Origin: Patescibacteria group bacterium
GTDB lineage: Bacteria; Patescibacteriota; Minisyncoccia; 2-02-FULL-40-12
NCBI GenBank assembly: GCA_038063995.1
Contig: JBBTUA010000003.1
Span: 1-63,041 of the forward strand
DNA: 63,041 nt
Direction: 5' to 3'
Shown: positions 6,877-45,350 of the stretch, one piece after another
Position numbering within the stretch: the stretch's first letter is position 1
How the letters are laid out: each line of letters starts with the position of its first letter
The notes under the pieces: model-generated
The model's input: the letters and a program-made list of their open reading frames with translations, nothing else
What the model was told of the DNA's origin: nothing
The model's database searches: none
Program-made: the position numbers and the translations under genes

Positions 6877-6897
6877 GAATCGGAACGAAAAGCTTCC

Positions 6898-7406
6898 CTC
6901 GGCATAATCAGAATCAGAGCTCTCGGCCTGCTCTTTAGAAAGCTTGCGCGAGCAATATAAATTTCTTCATAGGGGCGGCCCTTCTTGGAAATGGCACGCC
7001 ACTTTGCTCGAATTGCCGATAAATCAGGGTACCTCCGCCATAGATTTATATATTCGGCAATTCTTCGCAAAGATACCGGCCATTTCTCAATAAACTTCCC
7101 AATTCAGAAATTTATATTTCTCGCCGCTTTCTAATTTTTAAATTTTCCCAATGAAAAGAAAACCATTTCAGAATCAGAGCCGCAGGGTATGAATAATTTC
7201 TGAACTTCAAGAGAATAGAATACAAATAACTGAAAGATATGAAGAATTGACGGATAACATTAGTGTTATTCTGATAAACAATATAATGGGGTAGGGGTTC
7301 CCCATTATATTGTCGGCAATTCAATATATCTGAAGATTATTTGTTCTATGAGCTTGAGAGAAGAAATTATTCATACCCGAGAGGCTCTGATTATGATTAT
7401 GCCGAG
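6898..7406. repeat. 509 bp non-coding element bounded by ~29 bp imperfect terminal inverted repeats (IR block A)
   Basis: ctcggcataatcagaatcagagctctcgg (6898-6926) matches the reverse complement of 7377-7406 with 1 mismatch and 1 indel. The interior is homologous in inverted orientation to 15237-16065. Confidence 0.75.
7172..7392. repeat. ~220 nt nested imperfect palindrome (copy A)
   Basis: Arms 7172-7253 and 7313-7392 pair (for example gggtatgaataatttc 7185-7200 with gaaattattcataccc 7363-7378). The apex holds hairpins ataaca-ttag-tgttat and acaatataatgggg...ccccattatattgt. Confidence 0.8.
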
Positions 7407-7417
7407 ACGATTTCCCA

Positions 7418-14337: not shown

Positions 14338-15237
14338 GTGCCCGAACTTCCAGAAGTAGAAACAATCGCAAAATATTTGAGGCCAAAAATAGTTGGTTTA
14401 AAGATAACCGATGTTTGGGCTGACCGTGAAAAACCGTTAAGACAGGCCGGCGGGCTTAAAAAGTTTTTAAAAGAAGTTAAAAACAAAAAAATCAAAGAGG
14501 TAAGGAGAAGAGCCAAATTCATTATTATTGATCTTGAAGGGCCTAAATCAATTTTTATTCATCAAAAAATATCAGGGCATCTGCTTTACGGAAAATGGAA
14601 GAAAAACAGAAACACTTGGAATTCTTTATCAAAAGGGCCGCTTCGCGATGACCCGCAGAATAAATACTTGCGGATAATTTTTTCATTGAATAACGGGAAT
14701 CAGCTTGCCTTATCGGATTTGAGAAGATTCGGAAAAGTACTACTTGTGGGAAATAAAGAAATAGAAAATTTGAATGAAATCAAAAAACTCGGGCCAGAAC
14801 CATTTGAAATAAATTTTGAAGAATTTAAAAATTTATTCAACCCTTCGATAAAACTCAAGGTAAGGAAAAAGGGACGGCTAAAACCTGTTTTGATGGATCC
14901 TTATTTTATCGCCGGGATCGGCAATATTTATTCAGACGAAATTTTGTGGGACGCCGGCTATCATCCCCTTTCCAGAGTTGAGAAACTAAAAGAAAAAGAT
15001 TTAAAAAAGGTATTTGACTCGACTATTAAGATTCTTAAAAAGGCAATCGAAAGTCAGGGTTCAAGCATAGATGACTACCGACTCCCGTCCGGCGAAAAAG
15101 GACATTATCAGGAAATTCAAAATGCTTACCAGCAGACCGGGAAAAAGTGCAAAAAAAGTGACGGCGGAGTAATCCAGCGTCTTAAAATCACCGGCCGCTC
15201 CGCACATTTCTGCCCGGTGCATCAAAAGAGACTATAG
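14338..15237 (+). CDS. mutM: formamidopyrimidine-DNA glycosylase
   Basis: N-terminal (M)PELPEVE, H2TH region, C-terminal zinc finger C..x..C...C; GTG start. Confidence 0.9.
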   Translation: MPELPEVETIAKYLRPKIVGLKITDVWADREKPLRQAGGLKKFLKEVKNKKIKEVRRRAKFIIIDLEGPKSIFIHQKISGHLLYGKWKKNRNTWNSLSKGPLRDDPQNKYLRIIFSLNNGNQLALSDLRRFGKVLLVGNKEIENLNEIKKLGPEPFEINFEEFKNLFNPSIKLKVRKKGRLKPVLMDPYFIAGIGNIYSDEILWDAGYHPLSRVEKLKEKDLKKVFDSTIKILKKAIESQGSSIDDYRLPSGEKGHYQEIQNAYQQTGKKCKKSDGGVIQRLKITGRSAHFCPVHQKRL

Positions 15238-15444
15238 CAAAAGTATAACCAATTTCTTCTCTCAAGCTCATAGAACAAATAATCTTCAGATATATTGAAT
15301 TGCCGACAATATAATGGGGAACCCCTACCCCATTATATTGTTATTGAAGAAAAAGAAAGTAAGGTAGCAATCCGTCAATTCTTCATATCTTTCAGTTATT
15401 TGTATTCTATTCCCTTGTAGTTCAGAAATTGGTTATACTTTTGC
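15237..15444. repeat. ~208 nt nested imperfect palindrome (copy B)
   Basis: gcaaaagtataaccaatttc (15237-15256) is the perfect reverse complement of 15425-15444. The interior matches copy A except for the outer stem and one apical sub-hairpin. Confidence 0.8.
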
Positions 15445-16065
15445 CAGTCTTTTTTGAGATTCCGTCTCGGCAGACCTCACCGGCGAAGCCCAAAGAAAAA
15501 AGCGGTTTGATGTTATCGTACCGCTTTGGAAGCTACATAAAGACCTCTGGCCTCTTCGGATTTTAGAACTTCTTTTGCATAGAACTGCAAGATATAATCC
15601 TTAGCTCACCTCCATATTAAGAACTCAACAAAACCAATATTTAACTAAGTTTCTAAAAGGCCTGAAAAAATGGCTTGATGCGCCTGTGCCTGAAATATTA
15701 GTTAGAATCTACTAGAGATACAAAATACTGGCTTTATTGAGCCCTAAATGCCTCAAAGAGAGAAATTTAACTATACCTACATTATAGCACTAAGATATAT
15801 AATTTGTCAAATGCAAACTTTTGGTCTCTGTTTTAGTATAGAAAGCAGATTAAAAAAGAAAAATAGAAAGCGGCAAGGCGTATCAATTTCTGAGTCGGGT
15901 AGTCGTCTTAGAAAATGGCCGGTATCTTTGCGAAGAATTGCCGAGCTTTAATAAATCTATAGTGGAGGTATCCTGATTTATCGGCAATTCGAGCAAAGTG
16001 GTGAGCCATTTTCAAGAAGGGCTCCCAAACGAAGAAATTGATATGCCTTGCGCAAGCTTTCTAAA
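15237..16065. repeat. IR block B: inverted-orientation copy of 6934-7378, with a ~400 bp extra insert
   Basis: 15251-15342 is a 92 nt perfect reverse-complement match to 7277-7368. 15855-16065 matches the reverse complement of ~6934-7140 with scattered mismatches. It lacks the terminal inverted repeats of block A. Confidence 0.8.
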
Positions 16066-16071
16066 TTCCTA

Positions 16072-17013
16072 ATGATCATCTTTCTCCACGGCCAAGACTC
16101 ATACAGTTTAATTCAATACGTAAACAATCTTATCGCCAGATACGAAAAAAAATATCCGGGCAGTTTTAATTTCCATCGCTTCGACTTGGAAGAAGACGAT
16201 CCTGCCGAAATCAAAAATGTAATCAAGAGTACATCGTTTTTCAAACAGGTAAAATTCGCAGTCGTCAAAAATCCATTTGCCAAAAGTGAAGTTATGGAAA
16301 AATTGATAAAGGAAAATAGCCTGGAAAAAGACAAAGATTCGGTTTTGCTTCTTTATCAAACAGGCGAAGAAGAAAAGTTTAAAAATTTGAAGTTATTTGA
16401 TTTATTGAATAAAACGGCTCAAATAAAAGAATTCAAACCGCCGGAACGGCCAAAAGCCGCGAAATTCGCCTCTGATTATCTTTCAAAAAACCAGATATCA
16501 ATAGAAAGAACAGCCTTGAATAAGTTAGTCAAAGAAGGCGGCTCTGATTTTTGGAGGCTTAAAAATGAACTTGATAAACTTATTAATTTTTCAAAACAGA
16601 ACAAAGCCATAAATCTAAAAGAAGAAGATCTTTCAAAGTTAGTCAGTTTTAAACTTGACCAGAATATTTTTAACATCCTTGACTCTCTTTTTTCAAACCA
16701 AAGCAAAGCTTTGCTTCTTCTAGAGGATTATTTTTCTTCCGGCGGCGACCCTCTTTACCTTATTTCAATGATTGCTTTCCAGCTAAAAAATATGCTAATA
16801 GTTCGAGAGTTGATAGACAAAAAAATGCAGTACGCCCAAATCCTTAAAAAGACCGGCATGCATCCGTTTTTCTTCAAAAAAATTTACGAGGCATCTAAAA
16901 AATACAGCCTTAGCGACTTAAAAAATATTTTCCGAAAAGCAGTTGATTTTGAAATGGCTTTAAAAACAGGCCAGGCTGAAGCTGAAACCGCTTTTTTCAA
17001 AATTTTTCTTTAA
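16072..17013 (+). CDS. holA: DNA polymerase III delta subunit
   Basis: N-terminal IIFLHGQDSY start and overall delta-subunit layout. The ORF track starts at a TTG (16048) inside the repeat; the ATG at 16072 is more plausible. Confidence 0.7.
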   Translation: MIIFLHGQDSYSLIQYVNNLIARYEKKYPGSFNFHRFDLEEDDPAEIKNVIKSTSFFKQVKFAVVKNPFAKSEVMEKLIKENSLEKDKDSVLLLYQTGEEEKFKNLKLFDLLNKTAQIKEFKPPERPKAAKFASDYLSKNQISIERTALNKLVKEGGSDFWRLKNELDKLINFSKQNKAINLKEEDLSKLVSFKLDQNIFNILDSLFSNQSKALLLLEDYFSSGGDPLYLISMIAFQLKNMLIVRELIDKKMQYAQILKKTGMHPFFFKKIYEASKKYSLSDLKNIFRKAVDFEMALKTGQAEAETAFFKIFL

Positions 17014-34705: not shown

Positions 34706-34932
34706 AGAAAATCAACGCCCCCGGCTGACCAAGGGCCGCATCTTAAGATTCTGAAAAAAGATTTCCAAAGCCCTTTTGCAAGGCCGTATTTATTTATAGC
34801 CCGGATAGAATATTCAGAACAAGACGGGTAAAAACGGCAGCTATTCAAAAGACTAAAAAAACGACCCGGCTGATGATCGGGTGAGATGGTTTTTTGATAT
34901 AAACTTATGAATTGAATGACAATCTCTTTCAT
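34702..34932 (-). CDS. yidD: membrane protein insertion efficiency factor YidD
   Basis: YQ..ISP.....CRF.PSCS.Y...A....G...G.......RI.RC.P. Confidence 0.9.
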
Positions 34933-35264
34933 TTAAGCTTGCCTAAATCTTTCAAAAGGTTGGTTTTCAAAGAATTTTTATCCAAGATCAGAGCCTTTTC
35001 TTTTGCTATGACCAAAATCACAAAACCTGGCTTTACCCGGGAAATATTAATTCTTATTATTTCCGAAATTCTCCTTTTTATTTTATTGCGTGAAGCCGCA
35101 TTTTTAAAATTCTTTGCTCTGGCTATTACCGCAAACTTGCTTTGATTATTTTCTGAAAAATTGAACTTGATTTGAAAAAATTCAGAATTAATGCTGCGGC
35201 CGTATCGAAAAATCTTCCGAATCTCCCGCTCGTCAGATAATCTAAATTTTCGGCTCAAGGCCAT
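34929..35264 (-). CDS. rnpA: ribonuclease P protein component
   Basis: 111 aa basic protein between rpmH and yidD; A..RN..KR..RE motif. Confidence 0.85.
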
Positions 35265-35407
35265 TAAAGTGCCAGTCTTTTTCTATTTTTCCTCCTCCTT
35301 CTCTTTAAGACGTTTCTTCCAGCCCGGGTTTGTCTTCTTTTTCTAAAACCGTGCTTTCTTTTTCTTTTTTTCTTGGAAGGATGAAAAGTTAAGGCTTTTG
35401 ATTGCAT
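35264..35407 (-). CDS. rpmH: 50S ribosomal protein L34
   Basis: Hand-translated 47 aa MQSKALTFHPSKKKRKRKHGFRKRRQTRAGRNVLKRRRRKNRKRLAL. The TAATG overlap joins its stop to the rnpA start. Confidence 0.85.
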   Translation of the reverse strand: MQSKALTFHPSKKKRKRKHGFRKRRQTRAGRNVLKRRRRKNRKRLAL

Positions 35408-35567
35408 AGTTTTTAGATTAACCTTTTTCTTTTGTCTGGTCAATTGTCTGGTTTGACAAACAAGAATACAATATGTTTGTTAATCAACCTGATATTAACA
35501 AATTTTCAACTTAACTAAATTTGTTATTTAAGCAATCAATAAAATAGAATTATTAAGCAAAGCGAAA
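35408..35567. other. rpmH-dnaA intergenic region, candidate part of oriC / dnaA promoter
   Basis: Canonical rpmH/dnaA divergent arrangement; tandem ttgtctggt repeats and inverted taacaaattt/aaatttgtta. I found no perfect TTATCCACA box. Confidence 0.35.
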
Positions 35568-36938
35568 ATGACTAATTTAACCAACGAGGAAATTTGGAAA
35601 ACCGTCCTTAGTGAAATGGAAATGTCCTTAAGCAAGGCGAGTTTTATCACCTGGTTTAAAGACACCAGGATAGTTTCAAAAGAAAACGGCCAGATCGTAA
35701 TAAGTGTTCCTAATGGTTTTGTGAAGGAGTGGGTTCAAAATAAATTCAACAAAAGGATCTTCCTGTGCCTGAAGCAGATGGATGAGAATATCAGGGAAAT
35801 AAATTATGTTGTTGGCAATCCTTTTATCAAACTCCCTGATTCAAAGATTCTGACAAAGGAAATACAGCTTGAGCAAATTCAAGAAATATCTGTTGACGCT
35901 GATATTGACCCGAAAACAAATCTTAACAGAAAATATACTCTGGATAGTTTCGTGGTCGGAACCAGTAATGAGTTGGCTTACGCAGCCAGTTTTGCCGTAG
36001 CTAAAAATTTAGGCAAAGTCTATAATCCTTTATTTGTTTATGGGGGGGTTGGTTTAGGCAAGACTCATTTGCTCCAAGGTATTGCCAATAAAATACTGAA
36101 AGAAAGCCCCGACAAAAAGATTCTTTATATACCCACGGAAAAAATGGTTAGCGAGCTTATTGAGGGGATTAAAAATAAAACCATTGAGGATATTAAGATG
36201 AAATATGCCCAAAAAGATGTGCTAATAGTAGATGATATTCAATTTCTGGCAGCTAAAGAATCAACCCAGGATATATTTTTCGCCACTTTCAATAATCTTT
36301 ATAACCGCAATAAACAAATTATTTTGTCCTCGGATCGGCCCCCAAAGGCGCTTTCCGCAATGGAAGAAAGATTAAAATCCAGGTTTGAGGGGGGAATGAT
36401 AGCCGATGTTGGAATTCCGGATTATGAAATGAGGCTCGCTATTTTAAAAACCAAAATGAGGGACAAGCCGATTTCCCTGCCCGATGAAATTCTTCAGTAC
36501 ATCGCCACCAATATCCAGAAGAATATAAGAGAACTGGAGGGCGCCCTAAATAGAATAGTCGCCGTTATAGACCTTACCGGAAGAGAACCTAATTTACGCG
36601 ACGTAGAAAAACTTTTAAAAGCCTACATCCAGGCAAGCTATCGAAAAACAAGCGCTCAGACAATAATTAAAACCGTTTGTGATTTTTATGGAATTTCTTT
36701 GAATGAGCTCCTTAAAAAAAGCAGGAAGACTTTTTTGGTTAAACCCCGTCAAATTGCAATGTACTTATTGCGCGAGGATACAAAATCATCTTTCCCTGAT
36801 ATTGGAAGCCGTCTCGGAGGAAAAGACCATTCGACGGTGATTCACGCCTACAGGAAAATAATCGAAGAAGTAGACAGCAATGAAAATTTAAAACAAGAGA
36901 TAAATTTAATAAGAGAAAGGATATATAATAAGGCTTGA
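35568..36938 (+). CDS. dnaA: chromosomal replication initiator protein DnaA
   Basis: Walker A GGVGLGKTHLL, DDIQFL, C-terminal DNA-binding helix (GGKDHSTVIHA). Confidence 0.96.
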   Translation: MTNLTNEEIWKTVLSEMEMSLSKASFITWFKDTRIVSKENGQIVISVPNGFVKEWVQNKFNKRIFLCLKQMDENIREINYVVGNPFIKLPDSKILTKEIQLEQIQEISVDADIDPKTNLNRKYTLDSFVVGTSNELAYAASFAVAKNLGKVYNPLFVYGGVGLGKTHLLQGIANKILKESPDKKILYIPTEKMVSELIEGIKNKTIEDIKMKYAQKDVLIVDDIQFLAAKESTQDIFFATFNNLYNRNKQIILSSDRPPKALSAMEERLKSRFEGGMIADVGIPDYEMRLAILKTKMRDKPISLPDEILQYIATNIQKNIRELEGALNRIVAVIDLTGREPNLRDVEKLLKAYIQASYRKTSAQTIIKTVCDFYGISLNELLKKSRKTFLVKPRQIAMYLLREDTKSSFPDIGSRLGGKDHSTVIHAYRKIIEEVDSNENLKQEINLIRERIYNKA

Positions 36939-37153
36939 TAAGTTGTAAATAAAGTTGTTGGTTTCTACTTGTTAATTCTGGATTGAAAGTTATTAATATT
37001 GAACAGGCTTTTAAAAAATTAAACAAAGTAAGACTTTTATGAATAACTTATTAAGAAGCAATTAGATCGATTTTTCTTCTTGAAATCTGAAAAAAATAAA
37101 AATATGATCACTTATAAACAATCCTTATTATTATAAATCTGAATATAAATTAT
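36939..37153. other. AT-rich dnaA-dnaN intergenic region, candidate DNA-unwinding part of oriC
   Basis: 215 bp of very AT-rich non-coding DNA between dnaA and dnaN. Confidence 0.3.
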
Positions 37154-38254
37154 ATGAAAATAATAATAACAACTAAGAATCTTCAACGGGGGTTAAATGC
37201 GATAAAAAATATTACAGGCAAAAATTTAAATTTGCCTATTTTGAATACAATCCTTCTTTCTTTTAAAAACAGTCAATTAAATCTTTCGGCTACAAATTTG
37301 GAACTCGGAATAAATTATTATTTAAGCGCTTCCACCGAAGGCGAAGGTAAAATTGCTGTCCCGTCAAAAATATTAGCCGATTTTGTTTCAAGCATCAGGG
37401 ATGAAAAAGTCGAAATTACCCAAAAAGAAAACTCTTTGAACATTCAAAGCGCAAATTTTAAGACCAAAATAATAGGCTTTGATCCCAAAGATTTTCCTTT
37501 GATTCCGAAACTAAAAAAAGATTCTTTGGTGGCCTTGCCTGCCAAGATACTAAAAAACTCACTAGCTTCGGTTTTTGATTCAATATCTCTTTCCCAGACA
37601 AGGCCGGAATTGGGCGGAGTTTTTATTAATATAGACAAATCAAAAATATTTTTTGCTTCAACCGACAGTTTCAGGCTTACCGAAAAAATTATTTCTTTGC
37701 CTTCCAGAAAGACAATTTCCGTAATAATTCCAAGAAATACAGTAGCCGAACTCATCAGAATTTTAAGCGATTACGAAAAAGAGGTTTCCGTAAATATAGA
37801 AGAAAATCAAATCCAGTTTTTTTCGGAAGATTTTGATATAGTTTCAAGGCTTATAGACGGCCGCTACCCGGATTATCAGAAAGTGATTCCTTCCAGGTCA
37901 ATTTCGCAGATATTCTTTAAAAAAGAAGATCTTAATAACAACATAAAAATGGCCGGCTTATTTTCCAGCAATATAAACGACGTTGGTTTAAGAGTTGATA
38001 AAAAAGAAGCCGTCGTTTTTTCAAAAAATTCAGACAGAGGCGAGTTTAACTCAAGAGTTAAGAGCACGGCCGCTATCCAAATTGAAGAACCATTCGAAAT
38101 TTTATTGAATTACAATTATCTGGTAGACGGCCTTAAAAACATTCCTTCGGAAGATGTTGTTTTGGAATACACCGGGGAGGGAGCTCCCGTAGTTTTAAAG
38201 CCAAAAGAACAGGATCTTAGTTTCACCTATTTGATTATGCCCCTTAAAACGTAA
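37154..38254 (+). CDS. dnaN: DNA polymerase III beta sliding clamp
   Basis: 366 aa; three-domain clamp pattern, follows dnaA; C-terminal MPL.. Confidence 0.93.
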   Translation: MKIIITTKNLQRGLNAIKNITGKNLNLPILNTILLSFKNSQLNLSATNLELGINYYLSASTEGEGKIAVPSKILADFVSSIRDEKVEITQKENSLNIQSANFKTKIIGFDPKDFPLIPKLKKDSLVALPAKILKNSLASVFDSISLSQTRPELGGVFINIDKSKIFFASTDSFRLTEKIISLPSRKTISVIIPRNTVAELIRILSDYEKEVSVNIEENQIQFFSEDFDIVSRLIDGRYPDYQKVIPSRSISQIFFKKEDLNNNIKMAGLFSSNINDVGLRVDKKEAVVFSKNSDRGEFNSRVKSTAAIQIEEPFEILLNYNYLVDGLKNIPSEDVVLEYTGEGAPVVLKPKEQDLSFTYLIMPLKT

Positions 38255-41562: not shown

Positions 41563-42741
41563 GTGAAGATTATAACAGATGAGAGCAAAATTCAAGAATT
41601 GCTTACAAGGGGCGTAGAAGAAGTTATCGAATTTGAGCATTTAAAAAAACGCCTCTTGGCCGGAGAACAGCTAAGAGTTAAACTCGGCATTGATCCGACA
41701 AGTCCTAATATTCACATAGGGCGCGCTGTTATTTTGTGGAAGTTGAGAGAATTTCAGGATTTAGGCCATAAAGCCGTTTTTATTGTTGGCGATTTTACGG
41801 GCCAGATCGGGGATACTTCGGATAAAGAGTCCGAGCGGTCAGGACTTTCTGAAGAAGAAGTTAAGCGAAATATGAAAACTTATTTCGATCAGGCATTTAA
41901 AATTCTTGATAAAAATCGAACAGAGGCACATTACAATTCAAAATGGTTATCCGCGATCGGCTACAGAGACATTGACGAAATGCTGGAATTATTTAGTTTG
42001 CACGAGTTTGAAGCTCGGGAAAATATTGCCAAAAGATTAACTGCCGGAAAGCGTGTTTCACTTCGGGAACTGTTATATCCATTAATGCAAGGGTATGATA
42101 GCGCGGCTATAAAAGCTGATGTGGAGTTGGGGGGCACTGATCAGAAATATAATTTGCTTGCCGGGCGCGTTATACAAAAACACTACGGTCAATCGCCGCA
42201 AGATATTATGACAATGAAGTTCCCGCTTTTAGGACCGGATGGCCGCAAAATGAGCTCTTCTTGGGGCAACGTCATAAATATTACCGATGAGCCGAATAAT
42301 ATGTTCGGTAAGGTTATGAGCATAGGCGACGATCTTATCGTTCACTACTTTGAAATGGCGACTCAAGTACCGGCTAATGAAATAAGGGAATTTGAACAGA
42401 GCATTAGAAGAGGAGATAATCCGAGGGATATTAAATTGCGCTTAGCTTGGGAAATTGTAAGGATGTATCACGGTGATAGGGAAGCAACTAAAGCCAGAGA
42501 CGAGTGGGAGAGGGTTTTTTCCAAAGGGGAATTGCCCAGCGAAATGGAAGAAGTTGAAGGCGGCAAGTTGGTTGATGTGGTTGGATTAGGCGCCGGGGTC
42601 AGTTTAACTCAAGCCAAGAGATTGATTGACGAAGGAGCGGTTAAAGTTAATGGAGAAGTTATCAAAGAATGGGAGAAGTTGGTTTCAAAGAGTGATGTGA
42701 TTCAGATCGGTCCTAAAAAGTTTGTTAAAATAAAGAATTAA
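41563..42741 (+). CDS. tyrS: tyrosine--tRNA ligase
   Basis: HIGH-type PNIHIGR, KMSSS (KMSKS) and a C-terminal S4 domain. The start is uncertain: GTG 41563, or ATG 41533 which would overlap the divergent PBP start. Confidence 0.88.
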   Translation: MKIITDESKIQELLTRGVEEVIEFEHLKKRLLAGEQLRVKLGIDPTSPNIHIGRAVILWKLREFQDLGHKAVFIVGDFTGQIGDTSDKESERSGLSEEEVKRNMKTYFDQAFKILDKNRTEAHYNSKWLSAIGYRDIDEMLELFSLHEFEARENIAKRLTAGKRVSLRELLYPLMQGYDSAAIKADVELGGTDQKYNLLAGRVIQKHYGQSPQDIMTMKFPLLGPDGRKMSSSWGNVINITDEPNNMFGKVMSIGDDLIVHYFEMATQVPANEIREFEQSIRRGDNPRDIKLRLAWEIVRMYHGDREATKARDEWERVFSKGELPSEMEEVEGGKLVDVVGLGAGVSLTQAKRLIDEGAVKVNGEVIKEWEKLVSKSDVIQIGPKKFVKIKN

Positions 42742-42744
42742 ACA

Positions 42745-42768
42745 AAATCCCGCGATTCGCGGGATTTT
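42745..42768. terminator. bidirectional rho-independent terminator
   Basis: aaaatcccgcg-attc-gcgggatttt, a perfect stem flanked by A-run and T-run. Confidence 0.8.
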
Positions 42769-42776
42769 GTTTAAAA

Positions 42777-45027: not shown

Positions 45028-45082
45028 ATATTTTAAACAATTAATCCACAATTTGTGATCATTATATCCTTACTTTCCCTAC

Positions 45083-45111
45083 TTGACAATCTTAGGGGCT
45101 CGATATATAAT
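45083..45111 (+). promoter_or_regulatory. consensus sigma70-type promoter (TTGACA-17 nt-TATAAT)
   Basis: ttgaca 45083-45088, a 17 nt spacer, tataat 45106-45111; it points away from ruvB into non-coding DNA. Confidence 0.6.
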
Positions 45112-45117
45112 GTATCT

Positions 45118-45350
45118 ATACTTAATATATACCCAAATCGGGTTATTTTATTTCGTGTTTATTCGGCAAAACTCCTGACAGGACGCAGTCAATTGGTCTT
45201 TGATTAAACCCTTGGACTGATACCGGAATATTTTTTCTACGGGTAATTTGGAAGAGCTTGTCTCTTTCTAGATTATTCCTGGATAGTATTCTACCCCTCG
45301 CATTTCCCAAGATCGAGGATTTGACTGCGTCCTGTCAGGAGTTTTTTATT
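45118..45350 (+). ncRNA. candidate structured non-coding RNA of unknown class, or a MITE-like element
   Basis: Lies downstream of the consensus promoter. 45168-45192 and 45321-45345 form a perfect 25 bp stem enclosing 128 nt, followed by TTTTTTATT. No ORF is present. Confidence 0.4.

Follow-up and report, generated by a model that had tools for sequence, protein, structure and literature searches.

The enterobacterial repetitive intergenic consensus (ERIC) sequences, or intergenic repeat units (IRU), are imperfect palindromes of more than 100 nt (about 127 nt) found in transcribed intergenic regions, where they are present or absent at orthologous sites. They are unusually conserved between species, have larger forms that arise via insertions at fixed internal positions, and affect mRNA in an orientation-dependent manner. 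We know of no reports of ERICs as inverted pairs bounding inserted DNA. The ERIC/IRU elements of enterobacteria are reportedly the subject of Hulton 1991, Wilson and Sharp 2006 and De Gregorio 2005. In the REPINs, another group of palindromic repeats, compensatory changes across the hairpin are common, excised examples span ~80 bp and SBW25 has more than 1,000 occurrences of REP 16-mers (PMC3116915). In the full-text literature searched, we found no description of an interspersed repeat family in the candidate phyla radiation (CPR, Patescibacteria), whose genomes are small and tightly packed. Here we describe a palindrome, P, and its partner palindrome, X, in a 63,041-nt stretch of housekeeping DNA (hereafter the window). 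It is part of a Patescibacteria genome that was assembled from metagenomes of the Hainich aquifer. P and X belong to a previously undescribed family of ~200-base hairpin repeats, the hosts of which are ultra-small groundwater bacteria. The modules of this family are outside the core genome, at both edges of DNA inserted between housekeeping genes. With moderate confidence, we read P as a subfamily of lineage-specific, interspersed, modular palindromic repeats of the REPIN, ERIC or MITE (miniature inverted-repeat transposable element) kind, the hairpin of which is selected in single-stranded form, probably as RNA.

Compared by description, ERIC/IRU elements are like P and X in palindrome size class, intergenic setting, presence or absence at orthologous sites and interspecies conservation, but they occur in a different phylum and are unrelated in sequence. 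REPINs are also interspersed, intergenic and non-coding, and form long hairpins with conserved boxes split by a less conserved paired spacer. However, they are much shorter, consist of two short REP palindromes, reach hundreds of copies and are tied to a RAYT (REP-associated tyrosine transposase) gene. Unlike them, P and X are branched and nested, have unrelated sequences and were seen in few copies. Their architecture was not that of REPIN/RAYT systems, as the modules measured about 170-320 nt and had a branched apex, only three loci were seen for this organism, and no Y1_Tnp match that would indicate a RAYT (Y1 HUH) was found among the open reading frames (ORFs) of the window.

Three copies of P were identified in this organism. 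Copies A and B, in the window, were in opposite orientation, B being the reverse complement of A with 88.8% identity over 196 aligned positions. A sequence-only reading of the window had placed a long hairpin at each, and both hairpins were recovered. Copy A had a minimum free energy of -99.6 kcal/mol, compared with -44.7 +/- 4.4 in dinucleotide shuffles (z -12.45), and copy B one of -84.6 kcal/mol, compared with -43.2 +/- 4.0 (z -10.27), with 0 of 200 shuffles as stable in either case. The outer stem of copy A, GGGTATGAATAATTTCT (7185-7201) with AGAAATTATTCATACCC (7362-7378), had 17 bp and that of copy B, GCAAAAGTATAACCAATTTCT (15237-15257) with AGAAATTGGTTATACTTTTGC (15424-15444), had 21 bp, each 100% complementary. 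A scan with the exact 23-mer ATTATATTGTCGGCAATTCAATA from P found no match in 185,579 species genomes and one new locus in metagenome contigs. This locus holds copy C, on another contig (L024) of similar coverage that belongs to a replicate assembly for the same well. Copy C combined a B-type outer stem, GTATAACCAATTTC, with A-type flanks, CAGATCAGAGCC-GCA-GG / CC-GAGA-GCTCTG. The flanks outside the core were self-complementary within each copy, yet those of A and B were unrelated. Homology between the two extends as far as GTAT...ATAC, so that of the five compensated pairs discussed below, two (GG/CC vs AA/TT) fall at its limit. The A-type flanks of copy C show, however, that the GG/CC pairs and the closing helix are part of the element. 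Copies of P within this genome were 90-94% identical to one another, and 67-79% identical to the P-type copies of other species.

The 92-nt identity between A and B that had been noticed beside a replaced segment was also borne out. The identical run adjoins a hypervariable bulge of 21-27 nt, which is wholly different between copies of this genome despite identical flanks (Table 1). At the equivalent position in X, both length and sequence vary. The bulge was considered as a possible guide, but no complementary target for it was found in the 76 kb examined, outside which most of the genome lies; only low-complexity 11-13-mers matched.

At every locus P shared a single intergenic gap with X (~205 nt), the two being inverted relative to each other, and this organism had three copies of each. 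The two X copies of the window were 83% identical and each was self-complementary. Reverse-strand X aligned with forward-strand P end to end, with the common boxes AATTTCTGA, GAAGAATTGNCG, TCGGCAATTC and GAAGAAATT, and the helices between these boxes covaried (18 of 46 consensus pairs compensated). Judging from this alignment, X and P are homologous. The modules follow a common plan, with a closing helix, a GGGTAT-N5-ATTTCT helix (N5 covarying with the bases it pairs with), an internal loop of tandem G.A, a long helix with imperfect pairing, a variable bulge and, at the apex, a hairpin. The GAATTGNCG/CGNCAATTC helix was present in both P and X. A GCA/GAGA asymmetric loop occurred in P- and Q-type modules (Q is a further type, found in relatives), whereas X had GGC/GCGCAA there. 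The motif GCC-GCA-GGGTAT was found again in relatives. Locus A occupies the gap between ComM and M23 and locus B that between fpg and holA; these two inverted loci are 8 kb apart. Locus C lies between LepA and an intein-containing NrdJ and repeats the order of X and P seen at locus A. At loci A and C, only 40-46 nt separated the two modules (the spacer, or interior). Taken as a whole, the intergenic region of locus A (509 nt) formed nested hairpins (z -13.1).

The base pairing of these modules is, on comparative grounds, under selection. In the outer helix, 5 of 17 pairs were altered on both arms between A and B and none was broken, as the sequence-only reading had stated; within the core, copy A had three pairs altered on both arms. 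Its suggestion that pairing is maintained gained further support when copies from relatives were included, as compensatory changes then appeared in many helices. In the X set (six copies, three species), 20 of 76 pairs were altered on both sides, against 8.4 +/- 2.1 in shuffles and 1-4 in slid controls. In the P-type set (five copies, three species) the count was 23 of 73, against 10.0 +/- 2.3 and 2-7, and in neither set did any of 500 shuffles reach the observed value. Even the most conserved box was compensated, GAATTG/CAATTC being replaced by AATTTG/CAAATT in relative L034, ATCTG/CAGAT in L026 and GAATGG/CCATTC in L033. Across all copies the centre of the terminal helix took seven forms (GAATA, AACCA, the four-base ACCG, GTTTG, AGCCA, AGCTA and AATCA), each matched by the partner arm apart from one mismatch in each of two copies. 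Several G.U pairs were unchanged across copies. A 3x3 loop, GAA opposite AGA, which amounts to tandem G.A/A.G beside the ATTTCT/AGAAAT helix, was invariant together with that helix in five P-type sequences from three species, whereas the surrounding helices covaried.

Both strands of 19 modules from seven species were compared. Eighteen of the 19 folded better, by 4-24 kcal/mol, on the strand that is read outward from the interior of the gap. On this outward strand the opposed non-complementary positions were purine-purine in 308 cases and pyrimidine-pyrimidine in 95, with a purine-purine excess in every one of the 19 modules, and there were 100 G.T oppositions compared with 67 A.C. The rule was common to the different subfamilies and to all gaps examined, and therefore one strand, in single-stranded form, is constrained. 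Upstream of holA, where four X copies and the P-like copy lie, the outward strand is the sense strand of holA. T-runs were found on the inward strand, after X at all three loci and after P at two of the three, and a role of this strand as terminator of incoming transcripts is plausible. A terminator scanner based on a consensus model reported none at these loci, the stems being far longer than that model permits.

Complementary arms could also arise neutrally, through intramolecular template switching or correction of mismatches within the hairpin; intra-hairpin gene conversion had been the alternative offered by the sequence-only reading. The perfect outer stems (17-21 bp) of all three P copies would suit such a process, as would the A versus B/C difference, a clustered 4-nt block on each arm such as a single template switch would leave. 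Yet the same mismatches, bulges, G.U pairs and G.A loops persisted in all copies and across species, the non-complementary purine-purine positions accumulated on one strand in all the modules compared, and the sequence was conserved above the level of neighbouring genes. Simple arm-to-arm copying would erase the invariant mismatches, G.U pairs and G.A loop along with the consistent inequality of the strands, and is thus disfavoured. We regard neutral palindromes as very improbable and as the least likely of the alternatives.

The distribution of the modules was examined in related genomes. A PolA search of 185,579 species genomes gave relatives with 41-57% identity, the nearest full-length match being only ~46%, and none with the element. 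Closer relatives (56-74% identity), many of them from the same aquifer and with contigs syntenic with the window, were found with HolA. Related modules (P-like, X or Q) were present in at least six of these Patescibacteria (L026, L029, L032, L033, L034 and L036; Table 1), which, with copy C, supplies the further homologues that the sequence-only reading had proposed to seek. In two others, L028 and L040, fpg overlapped holA without a gap, and in L028 ComM overlapped M23 too. Because the gaps are lacking there, the fpg/holA and ComM/M23 gaps of the window are inserted DNA. Modules were nested in L033 and L036, in which an X interior lay within a Q-type scaffold. Each nested layer had its own GCA/GAGA loop and its own helix starting GGGTAT or GGGGT(G)TAT, and the inner X helix was GGGGTATAATCAATTTCT in L036 and GGGGTGTATCGTTTTCT in L033. 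The X copy of locus B and the X upstream of holA in L032, a relative from a different aquifer, shared 90.7% identity. Seven genes of the window were 70.9-78.5% identical to those of L032, and the range across all relatives was 71-79%. Between these aquifers, which lie on two continents, this one copy is thus better conserved than its neighbouring genes. A six-frame pseudo-protein of 6895-7410, intended to detect spurious ORF calls over other copies, had no match among 5.8 billion proteins, and in viral contigs a single 22-nt chance match lacked extended homology, a second scan being empty. Contigs L002, L003 and L004, from three independent assemblies of the same organism, ended 35-60 nt past the fpg stop codon, inside or just before the P copy of locus B; modules of this kind break short-read assemblies.

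These results do not fit the framing of P as a two-copy structured RNA gene, since P proved to be a subfamily of a modular repeat family that is absent at some orthologous sites and always shares its gap with a homologous inverted partner. A broader version, in which P and X are resident, non-mobile structures acting in cis in untranslated regions or as small RNAs, and X serves holA as a conserved 5' leader, is unlikely in our view, and we are equally doubtful that segmental duplication with gene conversion between the inverted loci produced their multiplicity. The position of X directly upstream of holA in sense orientation in four species speaks for a resident RNA, as does its conservation above that of the coding genes compared. 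Covariation, G.U pairs, purine-rich loops and the invariant tandem G.A loop are typical of functional RNA, and within a genome the same two gaps share a subfamily (X and P in the window, Q in L026 and X in L033). However, holA was coupled directly to fpg in the two relatives without the gap, and interiors upstream of holA varied by species, comprising X, P-like, Q, another hairpin type and a minimal hairpin of 7 bp. Copy C occupied an unrelated locus, and modules were nested in one another. Comparison with Rfam, which the sequence-only reading had named as a check, returned no family for P or X. The gathering-score scan of the whole window with Rfam 15 gave 12 tRNAs and nothing else, and E-value scans of both loci gave only plant miRNA-precursor hairpins far below threshold (one scored 22.7 bits where the gathering score is 211).

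The interior of locus B was much longer (414 nt). Its minus strand carried a 12/12 sigma-70-type promoter at 15810-15781 (TTGACA-18-TATAAT with extended -10), a terminator-like hairpin at 15527-15495 and a ~45-nt segment (15802-15845) that relatives have conserved upstream of holA. A similar segment, sharing TTTGTCAAATG, held a promoter-like site in L029 and L036, upstream of a multi-copy gene of 336-353 aa. The 336/353-aa ORF beside Q modules in L029 had no match in Pfam, NCBIfam, PHROGs or PDB, and it was considered as a transposase. This was rejected because the homologue in L037 adjoins bAvd and a reverse transcriptase (RT) with a template repeat (TR)/variable repeat (VR) pair of 89% identity, and is therefore the variable protein of a diversity-generating retroelement (DGR). 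The variable-protein family is CPR-wide, with at least 157 clusters of ~310 aa. L029 had two paralogues of the variable protein (70% identical) and a TR-like fragment, with no RT within the 21 kb seen. A remnant of a DGR RT C-terminus (49% identity over 65 aa) lay in the fpg/holA gap of L031 (8891-9073, minus strand). No homologue of RT, Avd or the variable protein was found in the window with tblastn, and P and X did not behave as DGR components, since the variable segments of P differ in length and are not A-specific variants. The link to DGRs is positional only, in that relatives hold a DGR target gene, TR or RT remnant in the same gap. Because of these remnants, the fpg/holA gap can be described as a site where a DGR cassette and hairpin modules accumulated and decayed. 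Hairpin repeats similar to MITEs have been reported to replace or degrade parts of DGR loci in Thiohalocapsa (bioRxiv 10.1101/2023.09.22.558884). Within the window, the perfect promoter drives an ORF-less unit of ~280 nt (15480-15810, minus strand) with the terminator-like hairpin at its end, and by its position this unit looks like a decayed remnant of the relatives' variable-protein gene.

MITEs, including Correia/NEMIS and the Thiohalocapsa arrays, share with P and X that they are non-coding, palindromic and repeated, form stable stem-loops and occur at DGR loci, and two inverted copies can bracket cargo. The perfect termini of every P copy would pass for the terminal inverted repeats of a MITE, but they do not discriminate, the whole element being a palindrome. 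Both ends of P carry a TA (G-TA-T...A-TA-C) that would fit a TA duplication, but it belongs to the conserved GGGTAT motif. P and X differ from MITEs in that no matching insertion sequence (IS) was found, the 63-kb window having no transposase, and in having extreme termini that are less conserved than the internal boxes; moreover, their stems covary between copies, for which transposase-bound terminal repeats have no need. The attC sites of integrons are likewise imperfect palindromes with structure conserved above sequence, conserved unpaired bases, a centre of variable length and one functional strand. P and X, unlike attC, are longer, form no tandem cassette array and have housekeeping neighbours (ComM, M23 peptidase, Fpg, HolA), and no integrase was found in the window. 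The attC core sites R''/R' (RYYYAAC / GTTRRRY) were not seen by eye at the ends (GGGTAT...ATACCC), no pattern search having been run. The TIGR-Tas arrays known in CPR consist of tandem units with alternating 8-12-nt repeats and 9-nt spacers beside a Nop-domain Tas gene (PMC12045711). This candidate was rejected on architecture, with no tandem array and no Nop-domain protein among the ORFs of the window. Membership of the named families (judged by Rfam, RAYT, target duplication and attC) thus fails or lacks support, the modules being too large and too branched.

Some of these comparisons nevertheless bear on a purely DNA-level element, in which a single-stranded hairpin or cruciform would be the substrate of a strand-specific transposase or recombinase (as for REPIN/RAYT, IS200/IS605 ends or attC) and have no RNA role. 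Strand asymmetry and conserved extrahelical and loop features are also hallmarks of single-stranded DNA substrates, and the paired inverted edge modules resemble transposon ends. With the insert removed, the surroundings of P at locus B form a short palindrome, GCAAAAG-TA-CTTTTGC, then TTTTTT, which fits insertion into the loop of a hairpin. Compensatory changes, found here, are documented for REPINs as well (PMC3116915). However, no candidate enzyme was present in the window or beside any copy, the termini were not the most conserved part, and neither GTTRRRY-type boxes nor a cassette array was seen. The conservation of the holA-proximal copy across aquifers is also hard to explain by a selfish substrate alone. 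We therefore consider an element without any RNA role improbable.

The reading of P as one subfamily of interspersed modular repeats would combine both levels. The family would spread as DNA, like REPINs, ERICs and MITEs, by an enzyme encoded outside the window, and the hairpin would be kept through selection on the outward-read strand in single-stranded form. That form would most likely be RNA transcribed from promoters within the insertion, for instance as a leader of holA. On the opposite strand, the hairpin with its adjacent T-run would probably terminate transcripts entering from the flanking genes. In the insertions seen, the two edge modules are inverted to each other. Between them there is almost nothing at loci A and C, and at locus B and in relatives a promoter with what remains of a DGR target cassette.

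Several observations weigh against this reading. Not all differences between copies are compensated, as the second helix reads TTCAAG in A and TACAAG in B and C, a change on one arm only. The 19 modules compared for polarity share ancestry and hence do not count as that many independent trials. A target-site duplication could not be defined, and no direct repeat surrounds the composite at 6898-7406; a 12-nt direct repeat (6909-6920 and 7170-7181) flanks the X of locus A plus extra sequence, and the relatives with empty sites, at 72-75% identity, are too diverged for an alignment of the junctions. The 63-kb window yielded no transposase, RAYT, integrase or reverse transcriptase. The scan covered ComM, M23, PolA, Fpg, HolA, the glycosyltransferase and every large ORF that lies outside two blocks, NusB-to-TsaE and RecG-to-RsmA; the remaining ORFs have housekeeping Pfam families in a precomputed gene table. 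No convincing promoter for outward transcription was found in the short spacers of loci A and C. Only three loci were seen for this organism, two in the window and one from the 23-mer scan, with little of the genome in view, and the modules were found in very few gaps, namely ComM/M23, fpg/holA, LepA/NrdJ and, in L029 and L036, next to the inserted variable-protein gene that adjoins PolA. Such a distribution is as compatible with conserved elements that have a function, or with gene conversion involving two inverted loci, as it is with transposition.

More speculatively, P and X could be the inverted, ~200-nt branched hairpin ends of an undescribed cassette-type mobile element of CPR, a possibility to which we give little weight. 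We are similarly hesitant about the details of such an element, which would have a fixed outward polarity (the strand with its 3' end at the terminus), an interior that is empty or holds a promoter and a DGR target gene, and movement by fold-back of its ends in place of a classical interaction of transposase and terminal repeats. Alternatively, and equally novel, the modules may represent a new class of structured RNA in which the hypervariable bulge is programmable. The family is a natural example of a hairpin kept by compensatory evolution, with fixed polarity and an invariant tandem G.A motif, and it flags hot spots of insertion at which DGR cassettes are gained and lost. Should the family be transcribed, it would represent a new class of structured RNA; should it move as DNA, an unknown mobilisation mechanism in an uncultured phylum would be indicated.

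Table 1. Coordinates of the P and X modules in the window, and of related modules and genes in relatives (positions without a contig name are those of the window).
Feature	Position	Strand	Remarks
P element copy A, core	7185-7378	+ (better-folding "sense" strand)	Terminal helix GGGTAT-GAATA-ATTTCT / AGAAAT-TATTC-ATACCC
P copy A, closing helix, left arm CAGAATCAGAGCC and GCA side of conserved asymmetric loop	7166-7184	+	Identical in copy C
P copy A, closing helix, right arm: GAGA loop side and GGCTCTGATTATGATTATGCCGAG	7379-7406	+	Pairs with 7170-7182, also with 6898-6926
P copy A, hypervariable bulge	7256-7276	+	Unrelated in B, about half identical in C; flanks identical over 43 and 92 nt
Conserved apical hairpin ACAATATAATGGGG-TAGGGGTT-CCCCATTATATTGT	7278-7313	+	At 15306-15341 in copy B
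P element copy B	15237-15444	- (sense strand)	Begins on last base of fpg stop codon; TTTTTT next on + strand
P copy B, hypervariable bulge	15343-15369	-	
X element copy A	6934-7141	- (folds better)	Homologous to P when read on opposite strand
X element copy B	15859-16066	+ (sense strand)	Stops 6 nt short of holA ATG at 16072
Outer inverted repeat, partner of 7377-7406	6898-6926	+	Encloses X copy A and P copy A; 6909-6920 directly repeated at 7170-7181
Interior between P copy B and X copy B	15445-15858	-	414 nt; promoter, terminator-like hairpin, conserved segment
P-like module and Q module	L026, ComM/M23 gap		
Inverted Q module	L026, fpg/holA gap		
X module	L032, L033 and L036, directly upstream of holA		
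P-like module	L034, directly upstream of holA		
Q module	L029, fpg/holA gap, also beside PolA		
Q module	L036, fpg/holA gap		
DGR variable-protein homologues	L029 3309-4370 and 8686-9696	-	
DGR variable-protein homologue	L036 6001-7014		
DGR variable-protein homologue	L037 3001-5791		

Small toxin-antitoxin genes were noted in similar insertion-prone gaps of the relatives, for a ParE toxin (L033 9147-9596) and a HicA toxin (L037 718-1297). Inteins were found in housekeeping genes, with a LAGLIDADG intein in the class II ribonucleotide reductase NrdJ of this organism (L024 2011-5841, minus strand) and another intein in the UvrD of a relative (L031 15600-18746). Most other convergent gene pairs of the window abut or overlap, without an element in between. 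Since rnpA, dnaA and dnaN are located at 34929-38254, the window probably holds the replication origin, the hairpin loci being on one side of it at a distance of ~20-28 kb. Between the convergent TyrS and RuvC genes, a perfect 18-bp palindrome centred on 1 nt (42738-42774) looks like an ordinary bidirectional terminator. Finally, between RuvB and the T2SSE ATPase gene (45080-45350, plus strand), a consensus promoter (TTGACA-17-TATAAT) was followed by a structure of ~180 nt without an Rfam match. It had a perfect 25-bp closing stem (45168-45192 / 45321-45345), a T-run after it and a z of -8.35, and is a candidate for an unannotated small RNA.

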